Of a DNA stretch of 64,000 nt, positions 29,511 to 64,000 are shown piece by piece. Origin of the DNA: a virus; IMG/VR virus record IMGVR_UViG_3300022562_001652, positions 49,816 to 113,815 of that record. One strand, given 5' to 3'. Position numbers and translations under genes: made by a program. Position 1 is the stretch's first letter. Each line of letters starts with the position of its first letter. The notes beneath the pieces were generated by a model. It was not told the origin of the DNA, ran no database searches, and worked only from the letters and a program-made list of their open reading frames with translations.

Positions 29511-30949
29511 GCAGCGTCCTCCTCACCGGTCGTCACAGTAGGTGAAGTCGGAAACATCCTCTTAGCCCCCTCGATCACCGTAACGAAATCTGACGACTTC
29601 GTAGAAGCCACGAAGACTTCACGAACAACAGGATCCCCCTCGTTGGCTCTATTGAGCGCTTCAGCAAGGAACGACAGCAGCTCGTCAAGACGCTCTCTCA
29701 GTACTTCGAGCGTTCCGTCCTCGGGAGAAGTCATGACGCGCAAGCGAAGGGCCGAAAGACAGGTTTCTCCCAGCTTGGTATCGGGGACCACTCCAGTAGA
29801 CAGCTCGTACGAAAGCTTTTCAGGATGCCAAGCAACCATGAGTGCGGCAGCACAGTACAACAGAACTACGACGTGCAACGGCGGCTGCCGGAGCTCATCC
29901 AGGCTGATCTCAGCTAGAGAGCCGATACTTTCTTCGTCTTCAGAAAGAAGTTTCTCGTTTGGAGAGATGCTTTCTTCGTCCCCCGCCACAAGCAGCCCTA
30001 GCCTAGATAGAGCTACGATAGCTGCTAGCACGTCATCGCACCAATCGGTAGTGCCAGACATCCGACTCCCTACGCTCGCTAAGAAAAGCGTGTCGGGATG
30101 AGAGGCCCCTTTGAGCCATGCGTCAGGAGAGGCGGCGTCTCCTTTCTTCAAAGAAGGAACACTTGATTCCTTCTCTCCGAGTAGGAAAGCCTGTCGACGA
30201 TTTTTTGACGCAACCACAATCGAAGAAAAGGTTGTCGGAAGACGTTCTGCACGAACGAGCGGATGTGGGGCTTCTTTCGAAACGTACGAAAGCGTCACGT
30301 GTGGGATATACCCATGCTTCCTAGACATGAGGCTTCCCAGCGATCCGAGCTGAGACAAGAGTCTGTTACGAAAATCAGGAAGCTCAGGTGAGTCTACGAG
30401 AGCGACGATCACGTCTTTTCCGTCACTGCTGTCGCTAGCAGCAAAACGACCCACACCCCCAACTTCCCCAGAAAAAGGGGCCTGTTTCGCAGCAAATCCC
30501 GACACGACAGAACAGAGACTGTCCCACGTATCACCGTCTGACGTTTCCGGGAAATAAGCGAGCGTCACGTGCATGTCTTCAGGAGAGACCGACCCGAGAG
30601 GAGCCAACTGCTTTCCTGTAGTCTGGGGTACTTCAAGAGCGATCATGATCCCAGAATGTTTGTTCTCGTTTGTCGTCGATTTGACGAGATCTTCTAGATC
30701 TCCAACAAAGATCCCGTCGGCCTTCTCCAACGGCTTCTTGGAAAGCACATCATCTAGTACAAAGCGCACGTCTCGTAGACACGCCTCGTACGTCGAGGAG
30801 AGTTCATCCTCCAAAGATGCAGCTGCTCCCGAAGACTTTGATCGGACGAGAAGCTGCGCCTTGAGAACGAAGTCGTCATCGAGCTGGGCTCCGTCGCCAA
30901 GTACGGCGTCGAAGACGGAGCCCAGCTCTTGTGAACGAACCCGTCGCAC
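29507..30949 (-). CDS. 2H-phosphoesterase-domain protein (Acb1/LigT-like) in the head module
   Basis: 480 aa; twin HxT motifs HVTLAY and HVTLSY about 90 aa apart. Confidence 0.8.
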   Translation of the reverse strand: MRRVRSQELGSVFDAVLGDGAQLDDDFVLKAQLLVRSKSSGAAASLEDELSSTYEACLRDVRFVLDDVLSKKPLEKADGIFVGDLEDLVKSTTNENKHSGIMIALEVPQTTGKQLAPLGSVSPEDMHVTLAYFPETSDGDTWDSLCSVVSGFAAKQAPFSGEVGGVGRFAASDSSDGKDVIVALVDSPELPDFRNRLLSQLGSLGSLMSRKHGYIPHVTLSYVSKEAPHPLVRAERLPTTFSSIVVASKNRRQAFLLGEKESSVPSLKKGDAASPDAWLKGASHPDTLFLASVGSRMSGTTDWCDDVLAAIVALSRLGLLVAGDEESISPNEKLLSEDEESIGSLAEISLDELRQPPLHVVVLLYCAAALMVAWHPEKLSYELSTGVVPDTKLGETCLSALRLRVMTSPEDGTLEVLRERLDELLSFLAEALNRANEGDPVVREVFVASTKSSDFVTVIEGAKRMFPTSPTVTTGEEDAA

Positions 30950-35652: not shown

Positions 35653-37383
35653 CTACTCCATATCTATGATCAGGTACTCGTCTTCGTCTCGCTTCTGCTT
35701 CTCTCCTTTGCGGAGATCGTTATCACGAGACACGGAAGCGTGTACGGAGCTGACCCAGTCGTCGCGCAGGAAGCCCTCGTCCACGGGCACTGGCGCAATC
35801 TTCTTCTCGCCGATGCGAGACGCAGCATCGAGAAGACGCTGCGCTCCTTGGTGCTCTTCATGACCGTGGTCTTCTCCCTCAAACATGCGGTCTTCCTCAT
35901 GCTGGGGTTGAGCGGCGGCCTGAGACGCGTCTCCTCCGGCCGCCTGTTGCTGCTGAGCCATCTGCGCCTTGAACTGAAGAGCGGCGATGTACGCAGGGTT
36001 CATGATGATGTCGCCACCCTCCTTCAGAGGCCCTAGATCCTCGAGCTCGCGGACCTCATTTACCGTGAGGTAGGTCTGTCCCTGTTTCGCACGAAGCTCG
36101 ACCGCTTGTTCCTCGGTCTTGGCATCCAGCCCGACGAATTCAAACTCGAACTGATCATCGATCGGCCAGACGACGTGGTTATTCAGAGACTCCGCGTAGA
36201 AATGAAGTAGTGGACGAAGCCCTCTGTCCTTCGATGCCTTCTGCTGTGCTTCGTTCGTCGACATGAAGAGGGGCTGCTGCGCCACGCTGCCACGAAGATC
36301 GTGGTTGATCTCGGCAGGATCTACCAGGAACACAGCGCAGGCACACTTCACCAAGAACTCCACCCAGAGCTGATACTCCATCTCCTTGTTGGTGGCCTGA
36401 AACGGGACCCATTGGATCTCGTCAGAGTTGACGATCGGCGTCTTCCACGCCTGCCCGACGCCTACGAGCTGCTGGTACCAGCTCTTGCGGAGCTCCTCCA
36501 GCTTCCTCTCGTTCAGCTTCCCCTTAATATTCAGGATCCCCTTCGCCGTAGTTCCCTGACTGAAGCCTTTGGCGTTGTAAGTCAGAGCCCACAGAAGCCA
36601 GGTGATCGTCTGAACTAGGATCTCTACTTCCGACAGACCGTAGCCGAAGGATCGGATGTCCGTGCTGGGGTTGCGCACCAAGAAGGCCAGCTCATCGGAC
36701 GTATACTCGCGGACTTTACGCGCATCGATCACCTGCGCATACTCGATCCGGTTTTTGAGTTCCGCCGTAGACGGGGGTGTTCCTCGACGATTCTTGGGAT
36801 GCGCGATCCTGACGGTGCCGGCGTCAACCGCGTGGATCGAATGCAAGCTCCCTCCGCGAGTCCACACCTTCTCGAAACACCCTCGATCCAAGGTCAAGGA
36901 GTCGGGCACGACCTTGCGAAGTAAGTTCGTCAGAGAACCCCTCTTCAGGTTGTACTCAACTCCTGTATTGACCAAGAAGTGAGTCAAGTAGTCGACGCGA
37001 TCCCGCTCCGAGTCGCTGAGCCTCCGAGCCGGATTGCCCCAACGTGGTTTGAATCTGAACCCGACGCTGTACTTGTTCGGCTGGGGCTGGCAGAAAGAGG
37101 TGATCTGGTTCTTCCGAAGAAGAATGATCGAAGAGATGATGTCGACGTGCTTCGCAGCGTTTCGCAGATCGTTATCGGAGAGACGAGAAGGGATATTCCT
37201 GTATCCCATCCCGAACGAGTCGGCCATCATGTCGGGATCGACGAAGTAGGACTTGGGCTCCTCTTCTTTAGGAGGACCGTCGTCGTCCTTGACTCCCGCC
37301 TGAGCAAGTTTCTCGGCAAACGTTCCGAAAGCCTCTATAGCAGCTTTCGTGACTTGTTCCGGAATGAACTCCACTAGGCTCAT
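35653..37383 (-). CDS. Portal protein
   Basis: 576 aa; 'HAVDAGTVR', 'GYGLSEVE', 'FSQG...KGIL', 'KEMEYQ.W', 'GLRPLL', 'TVNEVR' portal motifs. Confidence 0.92.
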   Translation of the reverse strand: MSLVEFIPEQVTKAAIEAFGTFAEKLAQAGVKDDDGPPKEEEPKSYFVDPDMMADSFGMGYRNIPSRLSDNDLRNAAKHVDIISSIILLRKNQITSFCQPQPNKYSVGFRFKPRWGNPARRLSDSERDRVDYLTHFLVNTGVEYNLKRGSLTNLLRKVVPDSLTLDRGCFEKVWTRGGSLHSIHAVDAGTVRIAHPKNRRGTPPSTAELKNRIEYAQVIDARKVREYTSDELAFLVRNPSTDIRSFGYGLSEVEILVQTITWLLWALTYNAKGFSQGTTAKGILNIKGKLNERKLEELRKSWYQQLVGVGQAWKTPIVNSDEIQWVPFQATNKEMEYQLWVEFLVKCACAVFLVDPAEINHDLRGSVAQQPLFMSTNEAQQKASKDRGLRPLLHFYAESLNNHVVWPIDDQFEFEFVGLDAKTEEQAVELRAKQGQTYLTVNEVRELEDLGPLKEGGDIIMNPAYIAALQFKAQMAQQQQAAGGDASQAAAQPQHEEDRMFEGEDHGHEEHQGAQRLLDAASRIGEKKIAPVPVDEGFLRDDWVSSVHASVSRDNDLRKGEKQKRDEDEYLIIDME

Positions 37384-48088: not shown

Positions 48089-50551
48089 ATGACGAAGGAA
48101 GACAAAGGGTACGTAGAGGTCATGAGACCCTCAGGACCTGTGTACCTGAGCACCACGCCTCATGTGGAACCCACGAAGCAAGATCTGTGGATCAAGATGT
48201 GGGCAGACATCGGCATGTACGCCTCTTGGCGCATCGACAGCCAGAAGCGAGATCAAAAAGATCGTGAGCGTGAGTTAGCAGAGGCGCATGCCACGATCGA
48301 CAAGCACCGAGGCGACAGTGACGAAGAATAGAAACCACTGGTGGGCAGAGCAGGGAGCGGGAGTCGGTGTGGCCTGGTTCTGTACAGGATACTGGTGCTC
48401 TAGGAAACCTCACCGCTTGCACATTCCCGAAAAAAGAAGGACGCATTCGCAAGGAGAGTTCGACCGTCTTTCTTCGCTGCTTGGGTGTCGGCGTGCTCCG
48501 TGCTGGAAGTGTGGTGGCAAAATCTCCGTGTCGATCATGTTTTGGGGAGAGAAGCCATGAAACCTTTGCACTGCGTCTATCCTGAGTGCGACGGCGTGAT
48601 GGAGCCGAGAAAACCCTGTGAAGAATGTTCCAGCGCTAGCAAGAAGACCATGTGGGAATGGCAGTGCGGGAAATGCAACACGGCGCGGTGCGCCTCGATT
48701 ATTGAGTACCCTCCGATTTTCATAAAGGAAGAGATGATGGAGATGGTAGGAAAGAAGCGAGAAAACGAACTGCTGGATGTTGTCATAGGAGGGGTACACG
48801 GGTTCTACGAGAAGACCATGAGACACCCTGTGGGTGTTCTGTTGAGTGAGAAGGACTTCGAGGAGCTATATCGTCTTGTGACGTCTTCGGGACCATTCAA
48901 GAGTGTGCCGATACAGGCCAAGCACACACCCGTCTCGATCGGGAAAGACTTCATAACGAGGGAGGAACAGTGGTTGGAAGTAACCACAAGCGTAGGGCAC
49001 GTAAGAGTAGCCCCCAGCGCGTTCGTGGTGGGGGGAGCGCTTGTGCTGGACGACTACACGTGGAATTCTGAAGCGGGGGCTTATCTGAGAGCCATGTACA
49101 GGCGATGAAGTGCGAGATGGTGGACGTGTTCCCGAGCTGGGAAGAAGAGAGCGCTGGGGAGCCGATCGAAGAAGAATGCCAAGAGGAAGCGGTGACGCGG
49201 ATCGAAGGACTCCCGTGTTGCGAATACCACGCCATCCGCTGTCGCATCGAAGAGCTCGAAGAGAGCCCTTTGTAAAGAGGAGGTAGAAGATGCGCAAGAT
49301 GTTCAGGATGAAGTACGAGAGCTGCTCTGGGCAGTGCTACGCCTATTCGGACGTGCTGCGGGTCCATACGCTGGGCTTGGACGAAGACGGCACAGTTTCT
49401 TTTCTGAAGAGGCTGCTGGCGATCCACGGTCCTGCGTGCGGGAACCAGCACCTGGCGTTCCGTCTGGATCACGACGAGGATCTTGGAATCTTCGTGGCGT
49501 CGTTCGAACGCTACGGGTCTTTGGACCTGTTCGCCGATCGTACCCCTCTGGGGGCTTTGAACAAGATGATCGATGGAGTCTTGTCATATTACCAGAGCGA
49601 GGAGTACGCGAACGACTATCGGAGGCAGCCGGGTCTGGGGCGCGGTGTCTGCAGGCACGGATCCGACGACGCGCTGGTGAACTTCGCGCTAGCCTTTTCG
49701 GGCTTGTCCGTAGAGCAGCAGAGTAGGATCCGAAACCGATTCTGGGGACCCTTAGCATGAAGAAGACCGTCGGTCTCACCACCCCCAAAGAAACGATCAC
49801 GGTGGAGGCCCTGAGGTGCCGAGATTGTGGGCGGTTGGTTATTTCGCTCGACGATCACAGGATCACCAAGCACAAATGCTCGGGAGCATGGAACGTCGAG
49901 TTCTCAGAACACGTCGAGCCAGAAGAAATCAGAAAGGCCATCAGAGGGGCCTTCAAGCAGAGGACAAAACCACCTTTGGATAGGTACTAAGATGATGAGC
50001 AACGAAAAAATCCTGCCACACGGGTTCCTTTTGTTCATGGCCCTGACGGTAATCGCGTCTGTCTTCCTTTCTGGCGTCTCCGTCAAGATCGCTTTCGATC
50101 AAGAAAATCGTTCGACGCCCAAGCTCTATGATCTAGAAGTTCGCGTCACGCGAATCGAGGAGGCATGCATGCGAAGCAGCTTCGTTCCTAAGGAGAAGCA
50201 ATGACTCCTGAAGAAGCGGTAGAGGCTCACAACAAGTACAGCGACGAGCTGCAGGAAGTCACGGCTCAACGCGACGAGCTTCGTGCCGAAGTCGAGCGTC
50301 TAAGAGGTATCTGCGACCACCAGCGTTACACCCTGTACTTCCTCGAAGGAACAGAGGACGGCGAAGAGCTCCATGCTTGTGACGCTCGCTATGAAGAGGT
50401 GGAAACTCTCAAGAAAGAGAACGAGCGTCTACGCAGAATGGAGCAGGTCGTTCTCGAATGGTGGTCGGCGGACCTGTCATTACCTCGCGTGCGACATGCT
50501 CTCCGAGAAAGAATGGCGGCGTGCGTGGAAGAGGCTAAGAGGACGCCATGA
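48089..50551 (+). other. Cluster of small coupled early-type hypothetical genes
   Basis: ORFs 48089-48331, ~48557-49108, 49290-49760, 49757-49990, ~49992-50204 and 50201-50551 with SD sites and ATGA overlaps. Confidence 0.5.
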
Positions 50552-52479
50552 GCACCGACCATCCGGACCACCTGGAGAGACTGCTGGCCGCGTGGCCTGA
50601 GCGTGACCTCACGGTCTATCCTCTCAGTGAGGACGACTGGATCGTGTACCATGGCAGAGCCACTGAAGGAGGCATGCGCAAGGATTTGTCTCGCATGAAC
50701 GAGGCACAGGCCCGTCTCATCGCCGCCGCCATCAACGCCCTGCCCGAACTGATCGCGCGGGTGCGGGTCGCGGAGATGACACTGGCCGAACTCAGGGAGT
50801 GGACGCACCAGCACGGGCGCGCGCTGTGTCCACCGGGCGCGGACGCGTACGGCGAGGGCATGCGCGACGCAAAGGCGCAGGTCGACAGGCTGCTGGCCGC
50901 GCGCGGAGACACGCCATGACCAGCGAGGAGCGCGAGCGGCTGCGGGCGCGGGCCACTGAGGCGGTGGCGCTGGATTCGGGGGGTCGTGTCGGCGTTCTGC
51001 CAGGCGACCTCGTCGATCTCCTGGACGCCGACGAGGCGCGCGAGCGGGCAGAGGCTGAGTTGGTTGCTCTCCGAGCCGACCTCCGCGCTGAGGACAAGGA
51101 GAGCGAGCACCTGGGCGCCGGTCCCTACCGCAGGATGGCCGGCCGGTACCTCGACGAGATCGACCGTCTCCGCGCCGAGTTGGCCCGCGCCCACGAGCTC
51201 GAGGAGGCGACGCTGGCATACGAGGACGCCAGGGGCGACACAGAGGGGCACGGCGGGTCGCCCATGGAGGCGCTCGAGGAGTGGCTGTCCCGGGCGGTCG
51301 CCGCCAGCCGCGCGGCCCGGGCCAAACGAGGAGGCACCGATGAGTGAGCGTATCGTGTCGCCGTGGACGTATCACACGGTCCCCAGTCGGCAGGGGAGGC
51401 GCCGATTCAATTCACGCCAGCGACGGTATCTGGACAGGGTGAGAGAGGCGCTTGCTGACAGTTCAGCGCACGAACTGACGCCGCAGGAATACATGTGCTG
51501 CCTGGATGAGATTCGGGCAATGGTGGAGGCGATGGATGCGGCCGGCGAGTGAGTGGACGCAGCGCGCCTACGATCGGTGCGGTGTCGAAGGACCACAGAT
51601 AGGCGTGAAACGCGTTCTGGAGGAGGAATTCGCTGCCGCCCAGGCCGACGCGTTGGAGCACGCGGCGGCGCTGGTGTTCGACGCGGTCGCCGATTGGCTG
51701 CGCGTGGCACCCGACGACGCGGCGCTCGACGGTTGTGGACGCGTGCTCCTGGCCGAGCTCCGCGCCGAGGCCGCCAAGCTGCGAGGGGGAGGCGAGGGGT
51801 GAGCAAGCGCTACTTGGTCGAACAGCAGGCGTGGCCCGATCGAATCTGCGATGGTTCGGGGTCGCATTGGTACCCGAGAGCCGGGGCAGGACCGGCCGCC
51901 GTCCCCGAGGAGGAGGAGTAGACATGGCCTTCAATTGCACAACCTGTGGCAGAGGTGAGGACCGCTGCCGGTCATGCCAGCGCGACGGCCGCCGGGTGCG
52001 GCACAGTGAGCGGGTCCTGGCTCGCGTCCGAGTCCCGGGCGGGGTCAGATGGGAATGGGAGTGCGAGTGCGGTTCGCAATGAGCGTGCTTATCGACGACG
52101 AGCACGCGATCGCGGACGCGGACAAGGAGGCAACCCATGGGACTGTTCGACCGACAGCCGTTCCCGAGGAGGGGTAGGACATGGGATACCCGATGAGCTA
52201 CGCTCGAGACTAGCGCAGACGAAGGCCACGTTTTTTTCGACCGTCCGCCCTCCCTCCCTCGACAACGCTGCGCTGGATGCGCAGAACATGTCTGAGAAGG
52301 AGAAGGCAGTACCCGACCTTTCTAGCCTCCGAGTACGCCAGACTTCCCTAGTCCCCCTAGAGCGGGATAAAGACGACGGCACCACGGAGCGGGTTCTGTA
52401 CTGGCTGATAGGGGACGAGGTCTACGTGCACCCGCACCGTTGGCCAGAGTTCCTCCTCCTGGTGAACGGCGCCCCGTAG
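50548..52479 (+). other. Cluster of small hypothetical genes, mostly high-GC
   Basis: Coupled ORFs such as 50548-50919, 50916-51347, 51340-51552 and 51549-51802; ~70% GC in the sampled line. Confidence 0.5.
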
Positions 52480-52853
52480 CTCCACATATAAAGGAGGAGC
52501 TCCACAAGCGGAGGATAGTTCAAAAAAACCCTCCCAAAAAAAAACAAAAAAACGAGCGGGATGCCTAGCACCGCGATACCCCCTTCCCCGGCCTTTTTTT
52601 CCGTGGTTCACCTTACCGATCCCACGCCTTCCCTAGACCCCACTCCACAGACCACGTCAACCCCTACTCACACGGCGTACGGGGCTTGCCCATGCTTGGC
52701 GTGCGCTCCTGGTTCGCCGCGATCACAGCAGGCGCAGCAAGGGGTCCAACGGGCCTGCTGACGGCCGATCTCGATCACCGGGCCATAGGCGGACACGGCA
52801 GGTGAGCACGGCCTCACAAGCCCTGTGAGGGGCCTTCTACGCGGTGTGTGGAT

Positions 52854-52976
52854 GGACCAGGAGGGTTACCCCTAGGCCACGTCTATCCCCTCTCACAAGC
52901 TCTGTGAGAGGACCAGGAGGGTTACCCCTAGGCCACGTCTATCCCCTCTCACAAGCTCTGTGAGAGGGGATAGACG
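52854..52976. repeat. 56-bp tandem repeat (x2) ending in an 18-bp perfect inverted repeat
   Basis: Units 52854-52909 and 52910-52965; IR arms 52936-52953 and 52959-52976 (CGTCTATCCCCTCTCACA). Confidence 0.9.
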
Positions 52977-53591
52977 GGACACAGGAGTACGATCCCACAG
53001 GGCTTGCGCTCCTGGCGACCGGGCATCGCCGGTGTGGTGAAAACCAGCATGTCGGATTTTACCGTAGTGAAAACCCACAGCAGTGTAGGAAAACCCCACG
53101 ATCCAGGCCCCGGATCGGCGGGATCCGGGGTAGCGGGATGCTACCCGCCCCTAGTGTTTCTGGCCACTTAGGCGTTTTTCCCCTTCCCCAGGGTACTCTG
53201 GCCGGGTTGCTGCATCGTGATCCGGCGAGGCGAAATACGCCTGCTTGCGCCGCTTGCGAGGCTGACGTGGTCAGCCGGAAAGCACCGTCCGAATGGACGA
53301 AACACCACTCCCCTACCCTGGGGACGGCGGGAAATGGTTCCCGTGTGTCCTCTGGTATCGGGGAGTGGTTTGGAGGTTTCCTATGTTCGCTGGATCCCTT
53401 GACGGACGGCTCTTTATTGGGACCTTGGACGACATCATCGACGCGCTCTTTGCGTCGACGATGCCGTCGCCAAGGTTCCGGTCCTTTTCATTCGATATCG
53501 CTTTGGCCACTGACCCTGACGGTGTAGTGACCGTCAGGGCTATCTGTGCCCGTACGGGCACAACCCTTCTAACCCTGTGAGAGGAGAAACC

Positions 53592-53993
53592 ATGAGCGAA
53601 GAAAACAAGATCGAAGGTCAGACTGTCGTGGAGAAGGCTCCGCGCAATCGACGCGAAAGGCGGGAAATGGAGCAGAGCAAGGGGAGTGGTGGTCGTGGTC
53701 AGGATCAGGCCGTGGCCAAGGTCGATGACGTCGACGTCCTGGCCAGCGCGACGGCGGCGATCACTGCACACGCCAACATCGACGCGGAAATCTTCGCGTC
53801 GTTTTCCCCGCTGTACGCCACCCTGGCCAAGGTGGATGTCGCGCTGGCCAGCGCGACGGAAGAAACCCGGCCAACCCTGGAGTTGACGCGAGCCCGCGTG
53901 ATGGATCAGCTCCAGGCTCGTAAGGACGGCGCCGCCCGTGCCTTCCGTGGTCTGTACCGCGACATCATGGTCAAGCACACCGGCGGCAAGTAG
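53592..53993 (+). CDS. Hypothetical protein
   Basis: GAGGAG RBS before ATG 53592. Confidence 0.6.
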   Translation: MSEENKIEGQTVVEKAPRNRRERREMEQSKGSGGRGQDQAVAKVDDVDVLASATAAITAHANIDAEIFASFSPLYATLAKVDVALASATEETRPTLELTRARVMDQLQARKDGAARAFRGLYRDIMVKHTGGK

Positions 53994-54025
53994 GTCTCCC
54001 CGCCCGATCCCACGGGATCGGGCCA

Positions 54026-54073
54026 TCATCTCTCACACCGTGTGAATCTGTGCCCACACGGTGTGAGAGATGA
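54026..54073. repeat. 19-bp perfect inverted repeat with a 10-nt loop
   Basis: TCATCTCTCACACCGTGTG / CACACGGTGTGAGAGATGA; preceded by a 9-bp hairpin at 54002-54023. Confidence 0.85.
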
Positions 54074-54084
54074 GGGAAAACGGG

Positions 54085-54897
54085 ATGAGCAAGCTAGACA
54101 AAGCCTATCGGCTTGAGAGCACCTTGCGTGCGCTCACCGGTACGCTGGATCCGCTGGCGGATCCGCTTTATGACTGCAAGGTCCGGGCTATCCTGGACCT
54201 TGCGGGCGTTGCCCTGCCGTCAGAGTACGACGGCAACGGCGCTATCCGCGTCGTCGACGCGCCCGACGCCAAGGTCCCGTATCGTCGCAACCCGACGGTA
54301 CGGGTGACCTGGCGTGGTGTCCCGTCGGGTCTCGCGACGGTCAAGGATGCGCGTGGTGTCCCGACCGTTCAGGTTGCCTCGCAAGGTGAGGTTACCCACG
54401 GCAATCTCGACCCTCGGATCGAGATTGCCGACCTTAGCCGGCGCAAGGCGCTAGCTCGGGAAGCAATCCGCAAGGCATGGTGCAGGTTGTCTGCACATGC
54501 CAAGCGTAGGATCCGTCGAGCGCTGGCGTCGGGTCAGGTCGCGCTGGCTAGACCTGCTAGCGCGACCTTGGTTGTGCCCGATCGCTGGCCAGCGCTGGCC
54601 GTTCTCGGTCGCATCGTGGCCAGCGTGGCGGTACGCGCAGCAAGGGACGCGCGTACCGCCAGCGTGGCGTCAACCTACGCCGCGCACAACGTCGAGGCGC
54701 CTAGGCCAGCGGTTTCCCGCCAGCCTAAGACGATCTTTCGCGTCGACGGGGAATTCGTTGGCCCACTCCGGCAGGATGCCAAGGTCGGGCATCCCGCCAA
54801 GGTCGGTCGACTGGCTGACCGTGTGCCTTGTACCGAGTGTGGGACAGGAACACGGCACCCGTCGCGACTGTGCGGCGAATGCCTGAAAGGGGAGTGA
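54085..54897 (+). CDS. Basic hypothetical protein with C-terminal Zn finger
   Basis: ~270 aa; CTECG...LCGEC. Confidence 0.55.
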   Translation: MSKLDKAYRLESTLRALTGTLDPLADPLYDCKVRAILDLAGVALPSEYDGNGAIRVVDAPDAKVPYRRNPTVRVTWRGVPSGLATVKDARGVPTVQVASQGEVTHGNLDPRIEIADLSRRKALAREAIRKAWCRLSAHAKRRIRRALASGQVALARPASATLVVPDRWPALAVLGRIVASVAVRAARDARTASVASTYAAHNVEAPRPAVSRQPKTIFRVDGEFVGPLRQDAKVGHPAKVGRLADRVPCTECGTGTRHPSRLCGECLKGE

Positions 54898-54900
54898 AAC

Positions 54901-55113
54901 ATGCGAACCATCAAGATGGCACGTTACCCACTGGCCAGCGCTGTGCTGGCCTACGTGGAGACCCGCGCGGATTCTCGCGCGGCCCACTTTTGGAATCGCC
55001 TTGTCGACCACGCGCACGCGATGATCGCGTGCGACTTCGTCGAGGAGGGAGACATGGACGCGGCGTGGGGCTGCGTCGCGTCCCTTCATGGAGAGCTCGG
55101 GGTGGCAGCGTGA
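54901..55113 (+). CDS. Hypothetical protein
   Basis: 70 aa; GGGGAG RBS. Confidence 0.55.
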   Translation: MRTIKMARYPLASAVLAYVETRADSRAAHFWNRLVDHAHAMIACDFVEEGDMDAAWGCVASLHGELGVAA

Positions 55114-55197
55114 CGATCCACGTCACGCTTTCGTGGCCGGTCGTGGCCGCTTTGTGCGCCGCGATCGTCCTCTGGGCCCTGATCCGGCGCAAGCGCT

Positions 55198-55268
55198 AAA
55201 AGCTGCGCCGCTACTGCGCCGGCCTAGCGGCGAGCGTAGGCTGAAAAGCTGCGCCGCTACTGCGCCGG
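55198..55268 (+). repeat. 25-bp perfect direct repeat with a 21-nt spacer
   Basis: AAAAGCTGCGCCGCTACTGCGCCGG at 55198-55222 and 55244-55268. Confidence 0.85.
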
Positions 55269-55274
55269 TGTTTC

Positions 55275-55326
55275 CCCTACGGGTGGTCCGTAGTGCGCTC
55301 GGGTTCGATTCCCGAGGTAGGGGCCA
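55275..55326 (+). ncRNA. tRNA-like element 1 (52 nt, no anticodon arm)
   Basis: CCCTAC/GTAGGG acceptor; GGG-TGG-TCC mini D arm; CTCGGG-TTCGATT-CCCGAG T arm; G+CCA. Confidence 0.7.
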
Positions 55327-55387
55327 AAAAGCGCGTGTCAGATCGGCACGCGCTAGTGCGTCTAAAAGACGCAAAAGGAGACATACC

Positions 55388-55954
55388 ATGACCAAGCACG
55401 TCATCGTTTCGCGTCATCCCGCCGCCGTGTCTTTCATCCGGGCCGAGTGCCCGGAATTCGCGGACGCGGAAGTGCTCGCGTCCGCCACGGCGGAACAGGT
55501 CCGCGACGCGATCATCGCAGGCAACCTGCCACTTCACCTCGCGGTGGAAGCCCGCGAGGTCTGGGCCGTGGAGTTCGCCGGCTCCGCGCCGCGTGGGGCC
55601 GAGTATGGCCTCGATGAAATGCGCGCGGCGGGGGCGCGCATCGCGAAGTACGCGGTAGCGCACCGGTCGTGCGCCGGTTCGGGATACGAGCACCACGATC
55701 CGTGCTCGTTCCTGGCTTCGGAGCACGTGGTCGACACGCAAACCGAGGAGCGTGTCCCGGTTTGCGTTTGGCATCAGGCCCGGTGTCTTTCCGCAAAGCG
55801 GTACCGGAAGGTTGCGGGTCCCGACGATCCCCAGCCGGATGGGGCTGTATGGGCCCCGTACGGCTGGAACGATGGATGGTATCGGTGGGATTGGATGTAC
55901 CACCTTCCCACCGGGCCGGATGATCGACCGCAACCCACATCCCCACGGCCGTAG
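55388..55954 (+). CDS. Csx16-like (Cas_VVA1548-type) domain protein with a C-terminal extension; putative ring nuclease
   Basis: AAGGAG RBS; 'VSRHPAAV.F', 'GNLPLHLA', 'RGAEYG.DEM.AAGARI..Y.V' match the Csx16 pattern. Confidence 0.65.
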   Translation: MTKHVIVSRHPAAVSFIRAECPEFADAEVLASATAEQVRDAIIAGNLPLHLAVEAREVWAVEFAGSAPRGAEYGLDEMRAAGARIAKYAVAHRSCAGSGYEHHDPCSFLASEHVVDTQTEERVPVCVWHQARCLSAKRYRKVAGPDDPQPDGAVWAPYGWNDGWYRWDWMYHLPTGPDDRPQPTSPRP

Positions 55955-55969
55955 GACCTGTGGGCCATC

Positions 55970-56030
55970 CCCTACGGATGGATCCGCCCGTTTCTGCGGG
56001 TGTCGGGTTCGATTCCCGATGTAGGGGCCA
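55970..56030 (+). ncRNA. tRNA-like element 2 (61 nt)
   Basis: CCCTAC/GTAGGG; GGA-TGGA-TCC; hairpin GCCCG-TTTCTG-CGGGT; GTCGGG-TTCGATT-CCCGAT; G+CCA. Confidence 0.7.
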
Positions 56031-56044
56031 ACAGGAGGAGACGA

Positions 56045-56506
56045 ATGGAGATGATCATCCTCCGGGGCCTGCCCGGCTCCGGGAAAAGCCACTACGCCGC
56101 GCAGTTTGCGGCGAACGAACCAACGAAGAAAGTCGTCGTCGCGTCAGCCGACGACTTCTTCATGACCCCGAACGGGTACCGGTTCGACCCGTTCAAGCTG
56201 ACGGCGGCGCACGCAAGCTGCTTCCGCCGCGTGCTCAACGCATTGGAAGCGGACGTCGACGACATGGTGTTCGTCGACAACACGAACTCCACGGCGTGGG
56301 AGATGTCGCCATACGTGATGTTGGCGAACGTGTTCGATGTGCCCTTCGTCGTCTTCAGGATCGAGTGTGATCCTGAAGTTGCGTACGCACGGCAACGCCA
56401 CGGCGTTCCGCGCGAGACGTTCGATGCGATCGGCCGCCGACTCGCCACGGAGTGGATCCCTCCGTGGTGGGTACAACGAAGTGCGCCGGTAATGCGCCGG
56501 AGGTAG
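56045..56506 (+). CDS. AAA_33 P-loop kinase (polynucleotide-kinase/N4BP2-like)
   Basis: 'ILRGLPGSGKS', 'SADDFF', 'VDNTN...WEM.PY', 'R..HGVP' motifs; AGGAGG RBS. Confidence 0.85.
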   Translation: MEMIILRGLPGSGKSHYAAQFAANEPTKKVVVASADDFFMTPNGYRFDPFKLTAAHASCFRRVLNALEADVDDMVFVDNTNSTAWEMSPYVMLANVFDVPFVVFRIECDPEVAYARQRHGVPRETFDAIGRRLATEWIPPWWVQRSAPVMRRR

Positions 56507-56508
56507 CC

Positions 56509-56727
56509 ATGGAAGACAAGATTCGGGAGATCCGTGAGCGGGTGCGCCTGCGGCGCAAGGATGCTGAGATCGCCAGTTTCAAGGCTGGCGATCCGGTGTC
56601 CTACCGCCGCCGGGGCATGCTCCATTTCGGAGCGATCCTCTCGATCGAGGATGGGATCGCCAAGGTGTCCGCTTCCGGTGGTGGGTACAACGAGGTACCC
56701 ACCACCATGCTCAGACCCTCCAGGTAG
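56509..56727 (+). CDS. Small SH3/KOW-like protein
   Basis: 'FKAGDPVSY......G.I..I' pattern; GGAGG RBS. Confidence 0.5.
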   Translation: MEDKIREIRERVRLRRKDAEIASFKAGDPVSYRRRGMLHFGAILSIEDGIAKVSASGGGYNEVPTTMLRPSR

Positions 56728-56975
56728 AAGGTAGAAAGGAGAAACCGATGCACTGGCCGTAGGACGATCCTTTGGTGCGTTCCAACTAATGGCGACACAC
56801 CGGGATGTGCCTAAGCGCACTGTTCAGTCCCGGAACAAGTCTAGGAGACCGGCATGACTTGGATTAACGCGTGACCGCGAAGTACCGTCGAACGTAGAGA
56901 CGTGCGTCTATCGACGGGCGCGGATAAGCCGTAACGTCTGACGAGCAGGTCAAAACTGTTCAACCGGGCTCGTCG

Positions 56976-57112
56976 CCCACGCCGTGGAAAGCGGCGGGTA
57001 GTGCCTGATCCACAATGTATGTCTTTGTGTTGTGAACAGAAGCGCGCTCTGTCACCCCAAGACTCGTTGGTGGTTCGGAACGAGAGCGGTTCGACTCCGC
57101 TCCGTGGGCCCA
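56976..57112 (+). ncRNA. tRNA-like element 3 (137 nt, multi-hairpin insert)
   Basis: CCCACG/CGTGGG; CCG-TGGAAAG-CGG; three inner hairpins; GAGCGG-TTCGACT-CCGCTC; C+CCA. Confidence 0.65.
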
Positions 57113-57301
57113 AGGAAAAGCTGAGAGGTGCCCGGGTGGCTCCGGGCTAGTCGGGGTGTCTATTTCCCCGATGAACAAGCGGACTAAGCTACCGCAAAAA
57201 AAGGCCCTCGCCCTGGATCGGGCCGCCGCCGGTGAGCGGCGATAGCTGAGGACGCAGAGGGGTTCGCCCCGGTGAAGGCGGATCTCGGCTCTCACCACCT
57301 T

Positions 57302-57348
57302 GCGCAGGAGGGGTTTGTAGGCGAGTTCGACTCTCGCCCTGCGCCCTA
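57302..57348 (+). ncRNA. tRNA-like element 4 (47 nt, minimal)
   Basis: GCGCAG/CTGCGC; GAG-GGG-TTT; GGCGAG-TTCGACT-CTCGCC; C+CTA. Confidence 0.6.
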
Positions 57349-57361
57349 AAAGGAGACAAAG

Positions 57362-57604
57362 ATGGCACGCAAGTGCAAATGCCACGAAAGAGTACGTCAG
57401 GCCATGGATCGTGGAATGGGCTTCCACGAAGCCTACGCTAAGTACGGACGACCTGGGTACCACGAGCACAGGTGTGAGTGTCCCTGCGGATGCAAGCAAG
57501 ACACACTGGGGTACGCATACTGTCCTTACTGCCATTTCGAGCATGCGGAAAGGCGTGGCGAAGTGATCGGGATCCTCGGGCTCCCCTTCAAGAAGAAGGA
57601 TTAA
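57362..57604 (+). CDS. Cys/His-rich small protein
   Basis: 80 aa; CECPCGC...CPYC; AAGGAG RBS. Confidence 0.6.
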   Translation: MARKCKCHERVRQAMDRGMGFHEAYAKYGRPGYHEHRCECPCGCKQDTLGYAYCPYCHFEHAERRGEVIGILGLPFKKKD

Positions 57605-58000
57605 TGCCCACCACGAAGAAGAAGAAGAAGAGCAGCAGGCAGCTGCTGCTTCTGAGCTGGCGCTGTGCCAATTGCAGGAAACTCGTATCCGCTTTCGTGC
57701 GGACGAAGGGCGATCGGGGGCGCGCATGCCTGCGGCTGTTTCCGCGCCACAATTGCGCCGCTGCTGCGCCCGCTGAAGCTTCTACAGGAGGAAAGTGAAG
57801 ATGAACGTTCACGTGATCGAGATCTCTGATGAAGAGGCGTGGATCCTCGCGGTGCGGGCTCGCGTTGCTCTCGGGGCCTCTCTCGAAGAAGCAGCCTCTA
57901 TCACGAAGAGAAACGCTCCAGAGCTCGCCGCCCGCGTTCTGGATCGCATCGGTAGCTGGCCATCTAGCTACCTTGAGCTGCGGGCGCTGCAGGAGCTACC

Positions 58001-58447
58001 ATGAAGGACGAGGGAATCAGAATCAGCCCCAAGCACGGGCTGAACCCAGCTATCCCCAAATGCTTCTACTGCCTGCAGAACAAGAACGAGATCATCCTGG
58101 CAGGCATGATGAAGCCGCTCTCAGGCAAAGGGCGAAACGCCAAGCCTGCGGAGTACGACCCCCAGGCCCCGCAGGGAATGGTCTGGGACAAGGTGCCATG
58201 CTGCGAGTGCGCCGGCTTCATGGAGAAGGGAATCATCCTGATCAGCGCGCTCGACTCTGAAGAGGGAAGCGATAACCCGTACCGCACCGGGGGGTGGGTC
58301 GTGGTCACCGACGGCTTCATCCGTCGCTTGCTCGGCGACACGCCCCTGTGTGAGGACATTTTGAAGAGGCGCGTGGCTTTCCTGCCAGACAAGGTGTGGG
58401 ATCAGATCGGCCTGCCGCGCGGCGAGAAAGAAGAAGAGGGGACATGA
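58001..58447 (+). CDS. Hypothetical Zn-binding phage protein
   Basis: 'SPKHGLNP..CFYC...C.EC...NPYRTG'; AGGAG RBS. Confidence 0.6.
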   Translation: MKDEGIRISPKHGLNPAIPKCFYCLQNKNEIILAGMMKPLSGKGRNAKPAEYDPQAPQGMVWDKVPCCECAGFMEKGIILISALDSEEGSDNPYRTGGWVVVTDGFIRRLLGDTPLCEDILKRRVAFLPDKVWDQIGLPRGEKEEEGT

Positions 58448-58670
58448 AGTCGACAGAAGAGAGACTGCGCACCGCCATTCAGAAGCTCCGGGAAGAGATC
58501 TTCGATCTGGAGCTTGCCCTGCATCAGGAAGGTTTTTGGACAGGCATACTTGTCTCCGCCGTCGAAGTAGAGGCCGCTGCTCACGAGACAGCGAACATCG
58601 TTCGCCGTCGGCTGGATCTGGACAAGAAGCGCGACGAAAATCTCAGTTTCATGGAAAGGAAGGGATAGAA

Positions 58671-60116
58671 ATGGCCGTCTTCGAAGCGAGCCCCGAAGGT
58701 TTCCGCGCCCAGAACATGGGCCGTCCGCCCGCGCATCTGGTGCGCGAGCTCATCCAGAATGCCTTTGACGAGGAAGCGTCCGTCGTCAAGGTGTTCATCA
58801 AGTGGACGCCGAAGCGTGGCGTCCAGCTGCGCGTCACAGACGATGTCCCCGGCGGCATCCGCGACGAGCGTCTGGTCTTCACGATCTGGGAGACGGACAA
58901 GGCCGATTCTCCGACGAAGCGTGGGCGCATGGGCCGTGGCCTCAAGGAGGTCGTGTCGGTCTCAGACCGCACGATCGTGTCGACGCAGGGAAGAAACGCG
59001 ACGGTCTTCGAACGCGTCGCCGACGGCGACTGGAAACGCTATACCTCGAACAAGTTCCCACCGCCGACACAGGGAACTGTCGTCGAGGCCAAGATCAAGT
59101 CGTGGAAACAGAAGGACGTCGACGACGTCGTCGAGTACCTGCGCCACATCCGCGCTCCGAATCACATGATGTTCTACGTGAACGATGAGTGGATCCGCGC
59201 TGCTCCTGCGCTGGAAGAATACGAAATGTACCTTCCCTCCGTGACCTTCGTGACCGAAGAGGGCGAACGCCGCGTGAGCAACCGCAGCTTCAACACCAAG
59301 GTCCAGCTCTTTCACGAAGCTGAGAGCTGGGTCTACGAGATGGGGTTGCCGATCGAGAAGATCGAATTTCCCATGTCGATCGACGTCGGGCAGCGCGTGC
59401 CGTTGAGAGAGCAGCGGGACACTCTCACCAAGAACTACAGAGACGAGCTCTTCGCGAAGCTGGTGAGCAGACGGATCGACGTGATCCCGTCCGAAGAGCT
59501 CAAAGACAACTACGTGCTCAATGCGGCGAGCTACGGCTTTCTCATGAGCGACGCTGCACAGAAGAAGATCGCGGATGCCTGGACAGAAGGCAAGCCGTAT
59601 GCCGCAACCCCCACCATGATGTCCGTCGCGACGGGTGCCCACATCCCCGTGGTGAACCTGCGCACGCTGCCTGAGGCGATTCGCGAGCTCGTCAAGCGGG
59701 TCGGATCCGATGTGAAGGAAGTCATCCGCTCACGCAAGGAAGCGGCGACCTCGACATCCCAACTCACGGCGTCTCATCGACGCCTCATCCAGGCTTGGGA
59801 GTGGCTCGCCGAGAAGATCGGTCGCCCAGTCTTCGTCCGAATCATGGACGGTAGCGTGTCGTCACGGGCGGACTTCAGCCCGGAATCTCGCGTCCTCACT
59901 CTCTATCGAGAGGTCGCAGGCGACGCCTTCTTCTCGGAGCCGTTTGGAGCCGAGCAACTCGGCCTGTTCATCCACGAGGTCTCACACTGGTCCCGCCGTG
60001 AAAACCAGCACGGTCTCGACTTCGTCTCGGACGCGGAGAAGGTGGGAGGGCAGGTCGCCAGCGTCTTCCTGAAGAGTTTCAGCGAGGCTCACGAAGTGCT
60101 TCGTTCTGTGCAATGA
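58671..60116 (+). CDS. GHKL (HATPase_c) ATPase with a C-terminal HExxH domain
   Basis: 'RELIQNAFD' N-box, 'DDVPGG', 'RGRMGRGLK', 'GT.V'; C-terminal IHEVSH. Confidence 0.75.
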   Translation: MAVFEASPEGFRAQNMGRPPAHLVRELIQNAFDEEASVVKVFIKWTPKRGVQLRVTDDVPGGIRDERLVFTIWETDKADSPTKRGRMGRGLKEVVSVSDRTIVSTQGRNATVFERVADGDWKRYTSNKFPPPTQGTVVEAKIKSWKQKDVDDVVEYLRHIRAPNHMMFYVNDEWIRAAPALEEYEMYLPSVTFVTEEGERRVSNRSFNTKVQLFHEAESWVYEMGLPIEKIEFPMSIDVGQRVPLREQRDTLTKNYRDELFAKLVSRRIDVIPSEELKDNYVLNAASYGFLMSDAAQKKIADAWTEGKPYAATPTMMSVATGAHIPVVNLRTLPEAIRELVKRVGSDVKEVIRSRKEAATSTSQLTASHRRLIQAWEWLAEKIGRPVFVRIMDGSVSSRADFSPESRVLTLYREVAGDAFFSEPFGAEQLGLFIHEVSHWSRRENQHGLDFVSDAEKVGGQVASVFLKSFSEAHEVLRSVQ

Positions 60117-60600
60117 TCCCAGGCAATAAAAGAACGGCGTCGCACGGTGGGATGTGCCTAGCTGACTCGACACGCCAGGGCACATCAAGGAGATCTCGAT
60201 GGGAATCAAGGTTCTTGGAACTCAGGGACTTGTAGAGTATGCGTGGCGCCACATAGGCGAGATCAAGGTACTCTACTACCGCTTCTTGGATCGGAAGAAC
60301 GACTGGAAGCCGGTTGCGTACTAAGGGGGAAAGAGATGTCGCTTAGCCGCGAACAGATCGGAAGAGGACGGCGGTGGTCGTTCATCAACGGACGCTGGCA
60401 CAAGCGTCAGATGTCGCGGTGGCGACGTCGTCAGCAGCGCTTGGCTCTTTCCCGTGGGGAAGAGCCTGTTGTGGGACGCGACTACGTCGGCTTCGCTTCT
60501 TAAGGAAAGGAGGTGATGTGGAATGGGCCCGCTCCGGGAAAGCCGGGGAGCCAGTAAACGCTAGGCCGAAACCCTGATTTATGTAGGCCATTGATTGAAA

Positions 60601-60689
60601 GAACGGCGTATCTCAAGTGGTAGAGAACCTGCAACGATCTCGTAAGGTCTTGTAGGAAGATGCCGGTTCGAATCCGGTCGCCGTTCCCA
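60601..60689 (+). tRNA. Non-canonical tRNA with a 29-nt extended anticodon arm (identity unclear)
   Basis: AACGGCG/CGCCGTT acceptor, TA, TCTC-AAGTGGTA-GAGA D arm, GCCGG-TTCGAAT-CCGGT T arm, C+CCA; G at -1. Confidence 0.7.
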
Positions 60690-60723
60690 AAGAAGTAGGT
60701 TTCACCAAAGAGGAGGAAACGCC

Positions 60724-61020
60724 ATGCACGACTGCCCATGCTGTGGGGAGGAAGTCGTCTATTCGGACAACCCTTCCGAGCTCTGCGACAGCTGCGAGTC
60801 CGCCGGGTGTGAGCCACACGAATGTGGCTGCGTCTGGTCTTGTGGAATCGGAAACCAGTGCGACGAGGAAGGCGTCTATCTGGACTGTCAAGTCCCGCAG
60901 TGCTTCGAGTGCGGGACGAGAGCGTCGCTGATGAACGACGGTTTCTGGCACTCCAACTGTGAAGAAGACGAGTGCACGAACGCGAACAAGTCGTGGCCTG
61001 CCACGATGCAATCCGCTTGA
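60724..61020 (+). CDS. Cys-rich acidic small protein
   Basis: 98 aa with many Cys; GAGGAGG RBS. Confidence 0.6.
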   Translation: MHDCPCCGEEVVYSDNPSELCDSCESAGCEPHECGCVWSCGIGNQCDEEGVYLDCQVPQCFECGTRASLMNDGFWHSNCEEDECTNANKSWPATMQSA

Positions 61021-61034
61021 AGAAGGAGGGGCTG

Positions 61035-61755
61035 ATGACGGTCGTCTCAAAATTGAAAGAGCTCGAGGAAAAGAAAAAAGACTTCCTCAAGAACGCTCCG
61101 CCTCCTCCCACAAAGGAATTCTCGTGGGGTCTGTTCGAAAACCTCCTAAACGGGTACGTCAAGGACGCACTTCACGAGTCTCCTGTTGACTGGAGATGGA
61201 ACTCTGAGGATCAGACCTTCGACTTCGAACTTGCACAGGCTGTTCGAGTAGGTGGGTTTGACGGTGTCATGACTCGAACCTTCACGTTCAACCCTCACCA
61301 CGATCTGGTGAAAGAGTTAAAGAGGCTGTACGAAGAGCGAAAGCGCTGGATCGGCACCTGCATCAAGACCTCTTTCTCGGGAGGAACACCATGAACGCAC
61401 CGACAACTGAAACCAAGAGGCGGTATCCGATCGTCGCGTCGCGCTGGTACAACGCGACAGAATGCGCGAGCATCGCGAAGATTCTGAAGGCTGGGGATCA
61501 TCGCGCCCTCCGAGACGGTGCTTGGGGAATCAACCTGGCCCGTGCTGTGGACCCTTACCGCGAGCTCACCGAGCTCGTCTCGGCTTTCCGATGACGCTCA
61601 AGGCCTTCGTTAAGAAGTACCGCCGGGAACTGGACGGCTACATCCAAAGTGCTGTTCCCGGTGCTCGAAAGAACGACGAAGAGCGTCAGCTGTGGGTGTT
61701 GAACGACGAGTATCTCTACCACTGGGCTCTTCGTTCCGGTGTGAAGGAGATCTGA
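61035..61755 (+). other. Three small coupled hypothetical genes
   Basis: ~61035-61394, 61391-61594 and 61591-61755 with SD sites and overlaps. Confidence 0.5.
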
Positions 61756-62450
61756 TGGGGACGCCGTTGAAGCTGAAGCTGTTCTACAGCGACGTCGACG
61801 ACAACCCGTCAGAGTACGACAGTTGGAAGCTCTACTCGTTCAGCCGGAAGCACGTCAACTACAGGCACCTGGACAACTTCCTGCCGCCGGGTCTCGGTCT
61901 TCGGAGAAAGCTCGAGGTCGGAACAGCCTTCCTGCTCTCGTACTACGAGCACGGGCAGTGTGTGTGGTCCCTTCAAGACGAAGGCCCACAGTGCCGATGG
62001 GACACCGTCAACTGCGCCGGGATCTTGCTCTGGGAACAAAGCCCTAAGAATCTCGGCGCCAAGACCCTCGAAGCAAGGCGTGAAGACGCGCGTCAGTTTC
62101 TCAAGACGTATACGGCCTGGTGCAACGGCGAGTGCTTCGGGTACATCCTCTACGAAGGGAACACAGAGGACGAAGAGGTTGATTCGTGTAGCGGGTTCTA
62201 TGACCCGGAAGAAATGGCAGAGAGCGTGCGCCTTGCTGCTGAAGGTCGTCGCGTCGAGATCGTCCCCACGAACGGCGGCTCCGATGCCAGCTCTCTCGCC
62301 GATTCCTACGAGTTCGGGCAGAACGTGATCGAGCCTGTCGTGCGCTGTCCCAAATGCCGCGCTCCCATGCGTAGCTGTTCTACTGGTGACCAAGATGCCC
62401 ACTGCGACAGCTGTCTCACCGTGGTGCCTTTGGAAAGGAAGAACTCGTGA
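61755..62450 (+). CDS. Hypothetical phage protein
   Basis: Start ATG 61755 with AAGGAG; 'YEHG..WD..G.L..Y..W.NGE.FGY..DSC.GFY' pattern; C-terminal Zn ribbon. Confidence 0.6.
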   Translation: MGTPLKLKLFYSDVDDNPSEYDSWKLYSFSRKHVNYRHLDNFLPPGLGLRRKLEVGTAFLLSYYEHGQCVWSLQDEGPQCRWDTVNCAGILLWEQSPKNLGAKTLEARREDARQFLKTYTAWCNGECFGYILYEGNTEDEEVDSCSGFYDPEEMAESVRLAAEGRRVEIVPTNGGSDASSLADSYEFGQNVIEPVVRCPKCRAPMRSCSTGDQDAHCDSCLTVVPLERKNS

Positions 62451-63824
62451 TGAACAACGAGAGCGCGAAGCATGCGAAGAGCGAATTCGGCACACAAGAC
62501 GGTGTCGACTTCGATGCCCATTACCGCATCAAGAAACCGTGGGCCAGGGGTGTCGCCTGGTTCTTGCTCGGCTGGGAAGCCAGGTACGTGCCCGAGCTCG
62601 CTTTCATGTGGGACGAGTTCGGAAACGAGTGGGAAGAAGAGGTTGAGGGAAAGTGGGTTCCCGACGTCGGCGGCAGGGTCGTAGCCGTGATGGTGGGCGA
62701 CGATCGGCGCTTCGTCTTCGACCTCGAAGACCTCGAAGTCATCAAAGAAGACAGCTTCTGCTCCGGCTGTGGTCAGATCGGATGCGGTTGGTGCTGAAAG
62801 AAAGGACGGTGGGATGAGCAACGAATCAGACAGCCGTCTCAAGGAAGCCAGCCTCGTCGCGGACGAGCTCGTCAGTGCTGCCAACGAGATCGAGCAAGTT
62901 GCGGGTGCTTTGAGGCTTTTGGGAGCCAAAGATGGATCGCTTCAGCTTCTCGAAGCTGTCAAGACGATCGACCGTTCGCGCGTGTTTCTCAGGACCCTGC
63001 ATCGCTTTCGGAACCGATAGGCAAGGAGGAGGACTGATGCGTTGTCCCGACTGCAACAAGTTCGTCTCGGAAAACACCGACGAAGATCCTGAATTCTCCA
63101 TCGACGCCTGGATGGAGGGCGACGTGATCACCGTCTCGGGTACGGTGTCGATCATCAACACCTGCGCGGAGTGTGGTACCGAGTTGCGTACTGCGTCTTT
63201 CGACACAGAGGCGACCATCTTCCGAAAGAAGGACGCACCAGCCCATTGTGGATCGCCTGATATCGACGAGTCGGATATCGACGCGGAGCGCACGGAAGAG
63301 ACGAAGGGGAAGGTTCGCTACTTCGGGTACAGAGCGACCGTGCCTATCCGTTGCTCGGGCTGCGAAGAGGTGATCACGGAGATCGAAATCTCCGATCAGA
63401 TCGCGGCTTCCGACATGGACTCAGCGGTGTAGGGGGATAGGATGACGAGGCAAATCACCCCGGAAACTCCGCAAGAGCTCTGCCTTTGGGACGAATACGG
63501 CGAAGCTCGACAGTTTGGAAGACGAAGATGACCTCTGACGAGAAAACCAACACGCCGCTCGACGTGTGGTGTCACACCTGCCACGTCGACGCCGGGCAAC
63601 TTTGCAGGTGGGGTGCTGTTGGGGAGTTACATACGATGCGTGAGCTCGGCTTCAAGCATCGCTCGTTTCCGTGTGAAGCAGAGATCGATCTCTCGAAGCC
63701 TATAGGCTTCGAGAAACGTCGTGGCTATCAACCACCGTGGTACACGGTGTTCTTCTACACGTGCCCACGCTGCGATAAGCGTGTGAACCTCCGACTCGTC
63801 CGCGATGGTCGGTGGACGATCTAA
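62447..63824 (+). other. Cluster of small hypothetical early-type genes, several Zn-binding
   Basis: 62447-62797, ~62814-63020, ~63037-63432 and ~63528-63824. Confidence 0.5.
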
Positions 63825-64000
63825 ATGAGGAGAAGAGCGTCCTATTCGACGAACGGGGGCAAGGTGCCTACGCCACCTACAGGCACTATCAAGTGTCCGT
63901 GGCGCCTCAGTGCTCCGACTACCAGATAGAAGAGGGAGGAAAGAGATGGACATCAAGTGCGTAGTCTGTGGTGAACCGTGGGACGCCTGGGGAGTGAACC

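Follow-up and report, generated by a model that had tools for sequence, protein, structure and literature searches.

A Csx16-family protein with an orphan C-terminal tail in a complete tailed phage: a candidate viral ring nuclease between tRNA-like elements

The DNA analysed here, hereafter the window, is a stretch of 64,000 nucleotides that forms the right-hand 64 kb of a 113,815-bp IMG/VR record (IMGVR_UViG_3300022562_001652). The record is the genome of a complete tailed phage with direct terminal repeats, whose exact overlap is 144 bp. The phage encodes a portal, a baseplate J protein, an M23 peptidase and a protein resembling tail-tube initiators. Structural genes occupy the minus strand as far as about 42 kb, and at 42.5 kb the plus strand takes over with a run of mostly small genes that reaches the end. 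The cultured phages nearest to it are SPO1-like Herelleviridae, whose portals share about 39% identity with its own, and a search of 50,697 phage records returned no DNA relatives of this phage. The gene under study encodes a Csx16-like protein of 188 amino acids (P0001) and sits within the plus-strand small-gene block. Its coordinates and those of the surrounding features are collected in Table 1.

The start codon is preceded by a well-placed ribosome-binding site, and both halves of the gene have the high-low-high GC content over the three codon positions that the adjoining genes show. A consensus scan in the vicinity found no promoter-like site and no convincing terminator. Directly downstream lies a P-loop kinase gene with its own ribosome-binding site (GGAGGAG) right behind the second tRNA-like element; its product may have a role in RNA repair or act as a nucleotide kinase. 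Elsewhere in the window, the head-gene region encodes a protein with a 2H phosphoesterase domain. Its similarity to the anti-CBASS Acb1 family is sub-threshold (21.6 bits, cut-off 27), and it could be a second cyclic-nucleotide-degrading enzyme of this phage. A 526-residue protein with a GHKL-type ATPase domain, for which no PHROG match was found, is encoded further along the plus strand, and a perfect, apparently non-coding tandem duplication lies upstream of the small-gene block.

Table 1. Features of the P0001 locus and other features of the window (window positions).
Feature	Position	Strand	Evidence
480-aa protein with 2H phosphoesterase domain	29507-30949	−	2_5_RNA_ligase2, E 7.6e-12
Portal gene	35653-37383	−	
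Tandem duplication, 56-nt unit	52854-52967		TRF score 228
Two perfect 25-nt direct repeats just upstream of tRNA-like element 1	55198-55222, 55244-55268	+	sequence
tRNA-like element 1, no anticodon arm, upstream of the gene	55274-55326	+	sequence, fold
Ribosome-binding site AAGGAG, 7 nt 5′ of the ATG	55375-55380	+	sequence reading
P0001 coding sequence (Csx16-like protein, 188 aa), with the stop codon TAG (55952-55954)	55388-55954	+	ORF, ribosome-binding site, codon-position GC
Csx16 (PF09652) core, residues 1-91, Rossmann-like five-strand fold, SRH/GNLP/RGxE/GA..Y motifs	55388-55660	+	Pfam, PADLOC, alignments, model
Orphan C-terminal tail, residues 92-188 (97 aa), Cys/His/Trp/Pro-rich, pLDDT 29-66	55661-55951	+	model, HMMER, composition
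tRNA-like element 2, starts 14 nt past the stop codon	55969-56030	+	sequence, fold z −2.93, mascRNA model
P-loop kinase gene, directly downstream of the Csx16-like gene	56045-56506	+	Pfam AAA_33 E 2.3e-15; PHROG 'ATPase' 1.9e-25, polynucleotide kinase 2.7e-8
Further T-loop element, near 57088	about 57040-57115		
Further T-loop element	57251-57345		
80-aa ORF, very Cys/His-rich	57362-57604	+	
526-aa protein with GHKL-type ATPase domain	58536-60116	+	HATPase_c 27.4 bits (cut-off 26.4)
tRNA-Cys(GCA), 88 nt	60602-60689	+	ARAGORN; Rfam tRNA model 44.7 bits (E-value scan, 50000-64000)

The original prediction had the gene flanked on both sides by tRNA-like elements. Elements 1 and 2 indeed share a 7-bp acceptor stem (CCCCTAC/GTAGGGG), the T arm GGTTCGATTCC, with a 6-bp stem and the loop TTCGATT, and a 3′ CCA. 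They are direct repeats lying 704 nt apart, identical at 28 of 29 positions in their 3′ halves and at 13 of 14 at their 5′ ends. Element 2 has two more hairpins, one of 3 bp and one of 6 bp with a 4-nt loop, and its fold is compact and cloverleaf-like (z −2.93), with the 4-nt loop in the place of the anticodon loop; its sole Rfam match, to the tRNA-like mascRNA model, is sub-threshold (27.8 bits, E 0.039). As true tRNAs both elements had to be rejected: ARAGORN made no call on either, Rfam RF00005 gave no match at E up to 10, and the folds comprise the acceptor stem and T arm only, with no 7-nt anticodon loop. What stands is a pair of near-identical repeats of acceptor stem and T arm. The two 25-nt repeats that closely precede element 1 fold, with their spacer (55198-55268), into a long hairpin.

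Further T-loop elements follow downstream, and such anticodon-less tRNA-like sequences (acceptor stem and T arm, with a CCA or CCCAA end) precede successive small plus-strand genes. Directly behind the fourth of them is the Cys/His-rich 80-residue ORF (CKCH, HRCECPCGCK, CPYCHFEH), which has no Pfam or PHROG match. The series may represent RNase P/Z processing sites or recombination sites, and the direct repeats that bracket the P0001 gene would make it a discrete unit and would allow its gain or loss by recombination. Searches with the genes up- and downstream of it, made to learn if related phages lack the cassette, found no close relatives of the phage. At the 29 other phage Csx16 loci described below, tRNA or T-loop neighbours are absent as a rule, so the bracketing is a trait of this phage rather than of the family. 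As for tRNA calls, the tRNA-Cys(GCA) of Table 1 was missing from a whole-window Rfam gathering scan with fast filters, and outside the window ARAGORN reports a tandem tRNA-Ile(AAT) and 'tRNA-Stop'(TTA) at genome positions 16945-17101, on the minus strand.

The N-terminal 90 or so residues had been said to follow the Csx16 pattern, with an HMM search proposed as the check. Our results show that Pfam PF09652 (Cas_VVA1548/Csx16) matches residues 6-90 of P0001 over profile positions 2-90 of 91, at 32.9 bits (E 7.7e-8; cut-off 25 bits). In a six-frame search of the whole genome this profile hits a single place, the P0001 gene (34.5 bits). Four PADLOC Csx16 models also match, the CARF-HEPN-Csx16 fusion model among them, with scores that include 31, 25.5 and 14.8 bits. 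The NCBIfam model TIGR02620 (curated cut-off 46.35 bits) gave no hit at E up to 10, and there was no PHROG hit. All the motifs named beforehand are present, as S8-R9-H10, G45-N-L-P-L-H-L-A52, R69-G70-x-E72, M78, G82-A83, Y88 and V90. When P0001 was aligned with 14 domains of the viral branch and 10 from cas-linked cellular proteins, [ST]RH after strand 1, G[NT]LP, RGxE and GA..Y proved constant across both branches, and P0001 keeps them all; in a 32-sequence alignment of the viral branch, 17 residues are invariant (V7, S8, R9, H10, G45, N46, P48, L51, A52, E62, P68, R69, G70, M78, A81, A83 and Y88). On these profile matches P0001 is a Pfam-level member of the Csx16 family, in a divergent subfamily.

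In the AlphaFold2 model, residues 1-91 form a Rossmann-like (CARF-like) domain, a five-stranded sheet with flanking helices, at a pLDDT of 93-98. The structural likeness of P0001 to ring nucleases (DUF1874) and CARF domains is weak (Z at most 4.8), many generic Rossmann folds being matched as well, and Foldseek searches of the PDB and BFVD returned nothing significant. Weak structural likeness to DUF1874 and CARF is a property that cellular Csx16 shares (PMC12409355). We found no published mapping of Csx16 catalytic residues.

A search of 5.8 billion proteins with P0001 yielded 87 metagenomic relatives, with identities of up to 75%, all of which carry PF09652 and each of which aligns to the first half of P0001 only. 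The 50,697 phage records contained no match to P0001 at either the DNA or the protein level, tblastn included. A pattern scan of IMG/VR recovered 29 viral loci with relatives of P0001, and a pattern scan of 185,579 prokaryote species (GTDB, one genome per species) recovered six loci only. Cas10 was matched in none of the 22 viral records tested. The 130 neighbouring ORFs at the viral loci fall into ordinary phage families (portal, terminase, lysozyme, integrase, QueC, dCTP deaminase); among the 25 neighbour families listed none is a cas family and none recurs, and no flanking gene is common to those phages or to this one. Such a lack of conserved neighbours, in surroundings of ordinary phage genes, is what an accessory gene that moves horizontally would show. 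Where members of the viral branch are genome-borne, their neighbours are HNH endonuclease, transposase, exonuclease, methyltransferase and terminase genes; they lie on other contigs than the RAMP genes, and a type III system is present elsewhere in two of five genomes. One of these genome-borne members (L031, Moorellaceae AZ2 contig 6, 7650-8279) reads SNN at the SRH motif and QG at the RG motif, substitutions that probably render it inactive. It is fused to a 115-residue N-terminal domain, and the type III genes of the same genome are on another contig.

As a control, we looked at canonical Csx16, which is present in 28 of 400 sampled gammaproteobacterial genomes with near-full-length PF09652 matches of 63-136 bits. 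In all five cases checked, the canonical cellular gene lies 0.3-10 kb from RAMP genes, and the Pokkaliibacter copy has a Cas10-like match 5 kb away. Csx16 is an established associate of type III loci. Its activity as a cA4-specific ring nuclease in vitro is published (Hoikkala et al. 2025, PMC12409355). In one gammaproteobacterial genome (L040, G227:C1:1336416-1339685) the canonical Csx16 domain forms the C terminus of a 516-residue open frame, and a RAMP gene lies 1.6 kb away. It fits the PADLOC CARF-HEPN-Csx16 fusion type, a self-limiting effector arrangement like Csx1-Crn2.

P0001 resembles the cellular proteins in the ~90-residue domain from end to end and in the four constant motifs. It differs from them in being phage-borne without cas neighbours, whereas the cellular genes adjoin RAMP genes, in its PF09652 score (33 bits, where cellular members reach 117-136 bits), in the missing TIGR02620 hit, in a shorter loop before the RG motif and in the added 97-residue tail. 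The shorter loop is a feature of the viral branch as a whole. In a maximum-likelihood tree, the canonical and viral-type clades are split by a long branch with 100/100 support; because the sets were retrieved with bias (the patterns came from a viral-type alignment and the canonical set from one bacterial class), the split indicates two branches and does not make the viral-type branch exclusively viral. P0001 belongs to a divergent, virus-dominated branch of Csx16. This branch also falls short of TIGR02620, which scores a canonical Csx16 at 122.7 bits and three viral-branch relatives at 26.9, 24.8 and 14.8 bits, below its cut-off. Annotation pipelines that rely on this model would therefore leave P0001 unnamed.

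The presence of Csx16 in viruses is not new. A published survey noted it in two phage genomes only, both of cultured viruses (PMC12409355). Searches that started from a viral-branch relative and from a canonical Csx16 domain found Csx16-like genes in the Methanobacterium viruses Drs3 and PhiF3, in Bacillus phage Shbh1 (gp42) and in Clostridium phage phiCs5676-1; P0001 as a query finds none of them, these proteins being too distant from it for detection by tblastn. Those of Drs3 and PhiF3 are annotated 'putative CRISPR-associated protein' and Shbh1 gp42 'CRISPR related domain'. All four share with P0001 a Csx16 domain, a viral genome as their setting and the absence of cas genes. Shbh1 is a member of the Herelleviridae, whose portals are nearest to that of this phage, and its gp42 likewise has the domain among small early-type genes and fused to an extra stretch of about 90 residues. 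The two proteins are 33% identical over 61 residues and their extensions are unrelated.

The extension of P0001 (residues 92-188) had been described as rich in Cys, His and Trp, a description that its composition bears out: it holds four Cys (95, 106, 126 and 133), six His, six Trp and also 12 Pro. The AlphaFold2 model of the tail is poor (pLDDT 29-66), with three short strands. An exhaustive HMMER search with residues 92-188 against 1.84 billion representatives returned the sequence itself and one weak match to a Trp-rich repeat, in a carboxypeptidase-regulatory-like repeat protein, which at E 1.9e-4 is too weak to use. Searches of the tail against Pfam gave zero hits and against the ESM Atlas nothing usable. 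Extensions of at least 40 residues are frequent among the relatives, C-terminal in 47 and N-terminal in 13, and fall into many unrelated groups. The largest group (n=10) shares a beta-rich domain of about 130 residues, with P0008, P0017 and L006 among its members. The cores of these phage fusions belong to the same viral branch as P0001, at 55-70% identity, and they too carry the extension at the C terminus. Whether the tail of P0001 is this ~130-residue domain was checked, and it is not (hmmsearch score −1.4, hhalign probability 0.4%). CxxC...CxxC signatures occur in seven independent extensions, two of them with sub-threshold zinc-ribbon matches in Pfam. The P0001 tail has no CxxC pairs, so that metal binding by it is only a guess. 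We would describe the tail as an add-on specific to this lineage.

The window had been reported to contain no cas genes. This holds for the complete 113,815-bp record, in which no Cas10/Csm1, RAMP or Cas1 match was found, and the 64-kb window contains no CRISPR-like array. Absence of cas genes is expected for a viral copy; it speaks against a 'cas gene' proper, not against the fold or the activity. In being virus-encoded, stand-alone and without cas neighbours (also in the 22 viral records), P0001 resembles AcrIII-1 (Crn2/DUF1874), the viral cA4 ring nuclease that acts as an anti-CRISPR.

Type III CRISPR signalling is switched off by ring nucleases. P0001 is probably a phage cA4 ring nuclease of the Csx16 family that acts as an anti-CRISPR. 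This reading draws on the full-length PF09652 match, the constant motifs, the confidently modelled core fold, the published activity of Csx16 and the cas-free phage context. The low scores (about 33 bits with PF09652, no hit with TIGR02620) and the shortened loop before the RG motif count against it. In the mechanism that we envisage, the host's type III CRISPR Cas10 would make cyclic tetra-adenylate (cA4) on recognising phage transcripts. P0001, presumably dimeric as other ring nucleases are, would bind cA4 with its CARF-like Rossmann core (residues 1-91) and cut it to linear products without a metal ion, and the CARF/SAVED effectors (Csm6/Csx1, Can1/2, Cam1) would then never be activated. 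Made from the rightward block of small accessory genes, P0001 would thus serve as an anti-CRISPR in the way of AcrIII-1. The 97-residue tail might bind metal through its four Cys and six His or be a partner-binding module, and is dispensable for explaining the activity of the core. The original prediction of a co-opted anti-CRISPR is in keeping with the HMM match, the complete cas-free phage and the viral relatives, except that 'co-opted' implies a direction of transfer that goes beyond the data.

Two alternatives keep P0001 within nucleotide signalling. The core could recognise something other than cA4, as a nuclease or binder of cA3, cA6, a CBASS nucleotide or another cyclic nucleotide. The long, fully supported branch between the viral and canonical clades leaves room for such a change. 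Csx20, which is related, cleaves cA3 as well, Crn4 has a broad spectrum, and the 2H phosphoesterase of this phage, with its sub-threshold similarity to Acb1, suggests that the phage may counter several nucleotide signals. We nevertheless consider this distinctly unlikely, as the only Csx16 assayed is strictly cA4-specific and the conserved ligand-facing motifs are identical. Alternatively, the core could be a sponge that binds cA4 uncut and blocks signalling by sequestration, as suggested for the related candidate Csx15 and known in phage anti-CBASS and anti-Thoeris proteins (PMC12409355). The divergence of the branch from the assayed enzyme and the shortened pre-RG loop would suit a loss of catalysis. 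Such a loss would make the retention of all the family-constant polar residues (S8, R9, H10, R69 and E72) unexpected, however, and sequestration appears very unlikely to us.

Equally small, in our estimate, is the probability that the protein serves no defence-related purpose and is a Rossmann-like nucleotide- or RNA-binding protein, for instance one that works with the tRNA-like elements and the P-loop kinase to process or repair RNA. The position of the gene between two such elements and beside an AAA_33/polynucleotide-kinase-like gene would fit this role, as would the weak structural matches, shared with many generic Rossmann folds. Yet the other 29 viral loci have, as a rule, no tRNA or T-loop neighbours and have no conserved kinase neighbour. 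It is more improbable still that the gene is decaying, or that the tail is read-through junk left after the original stop codon was lost. The tail indeed has no homologues and a low fold confidence, and third-position GC drops toward the 3′ end. But the core is intact in every invariant residue, the high-low-high GC pattern runs on through the tail, and C-terminal tails of at least 40 residues occur in 47 relatives.

Returning to the ring-nuclease reading, a broader version of it can be drawn up, which we regard as unlikely in its entirety. The viral Csx16 branch would be a virus-dominated anti-CRISPR lineage comparable to DUF1874, its core serving as a platform for fast-evolving add-ons. The Cys/His/Trp tail would here be a new metal- or partner-binding module, which might regulate the nuclease or dock on either an effector or the Cas10 complex, and the gene would perhaps be a cassette between tRNA-like processing or recombination repeats.

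That Csx16 is a ring nuclease and that it occurs in phages is already known; peculiar to this case are the orphan tail and the bracketing tRNA-like repeats. As a single gene, P0001 is an expected example and no surprise. Among viral ring nucleases AcrIII-1 is long established, and SAVED-type and Crn4-type ones have been described or proposed more recently. The present case and its relatives (29 viral contigs, 87 metagenomic proteins) show that uncultured phages commonly carry a divergent branch of Csx16, outside cas loci, and that TIGR02620 misses it. If the viral branch is active, viral cA4 nucleases would include a second large family, and the many unrelated tails of this branch would be candidates for new accessory functions.
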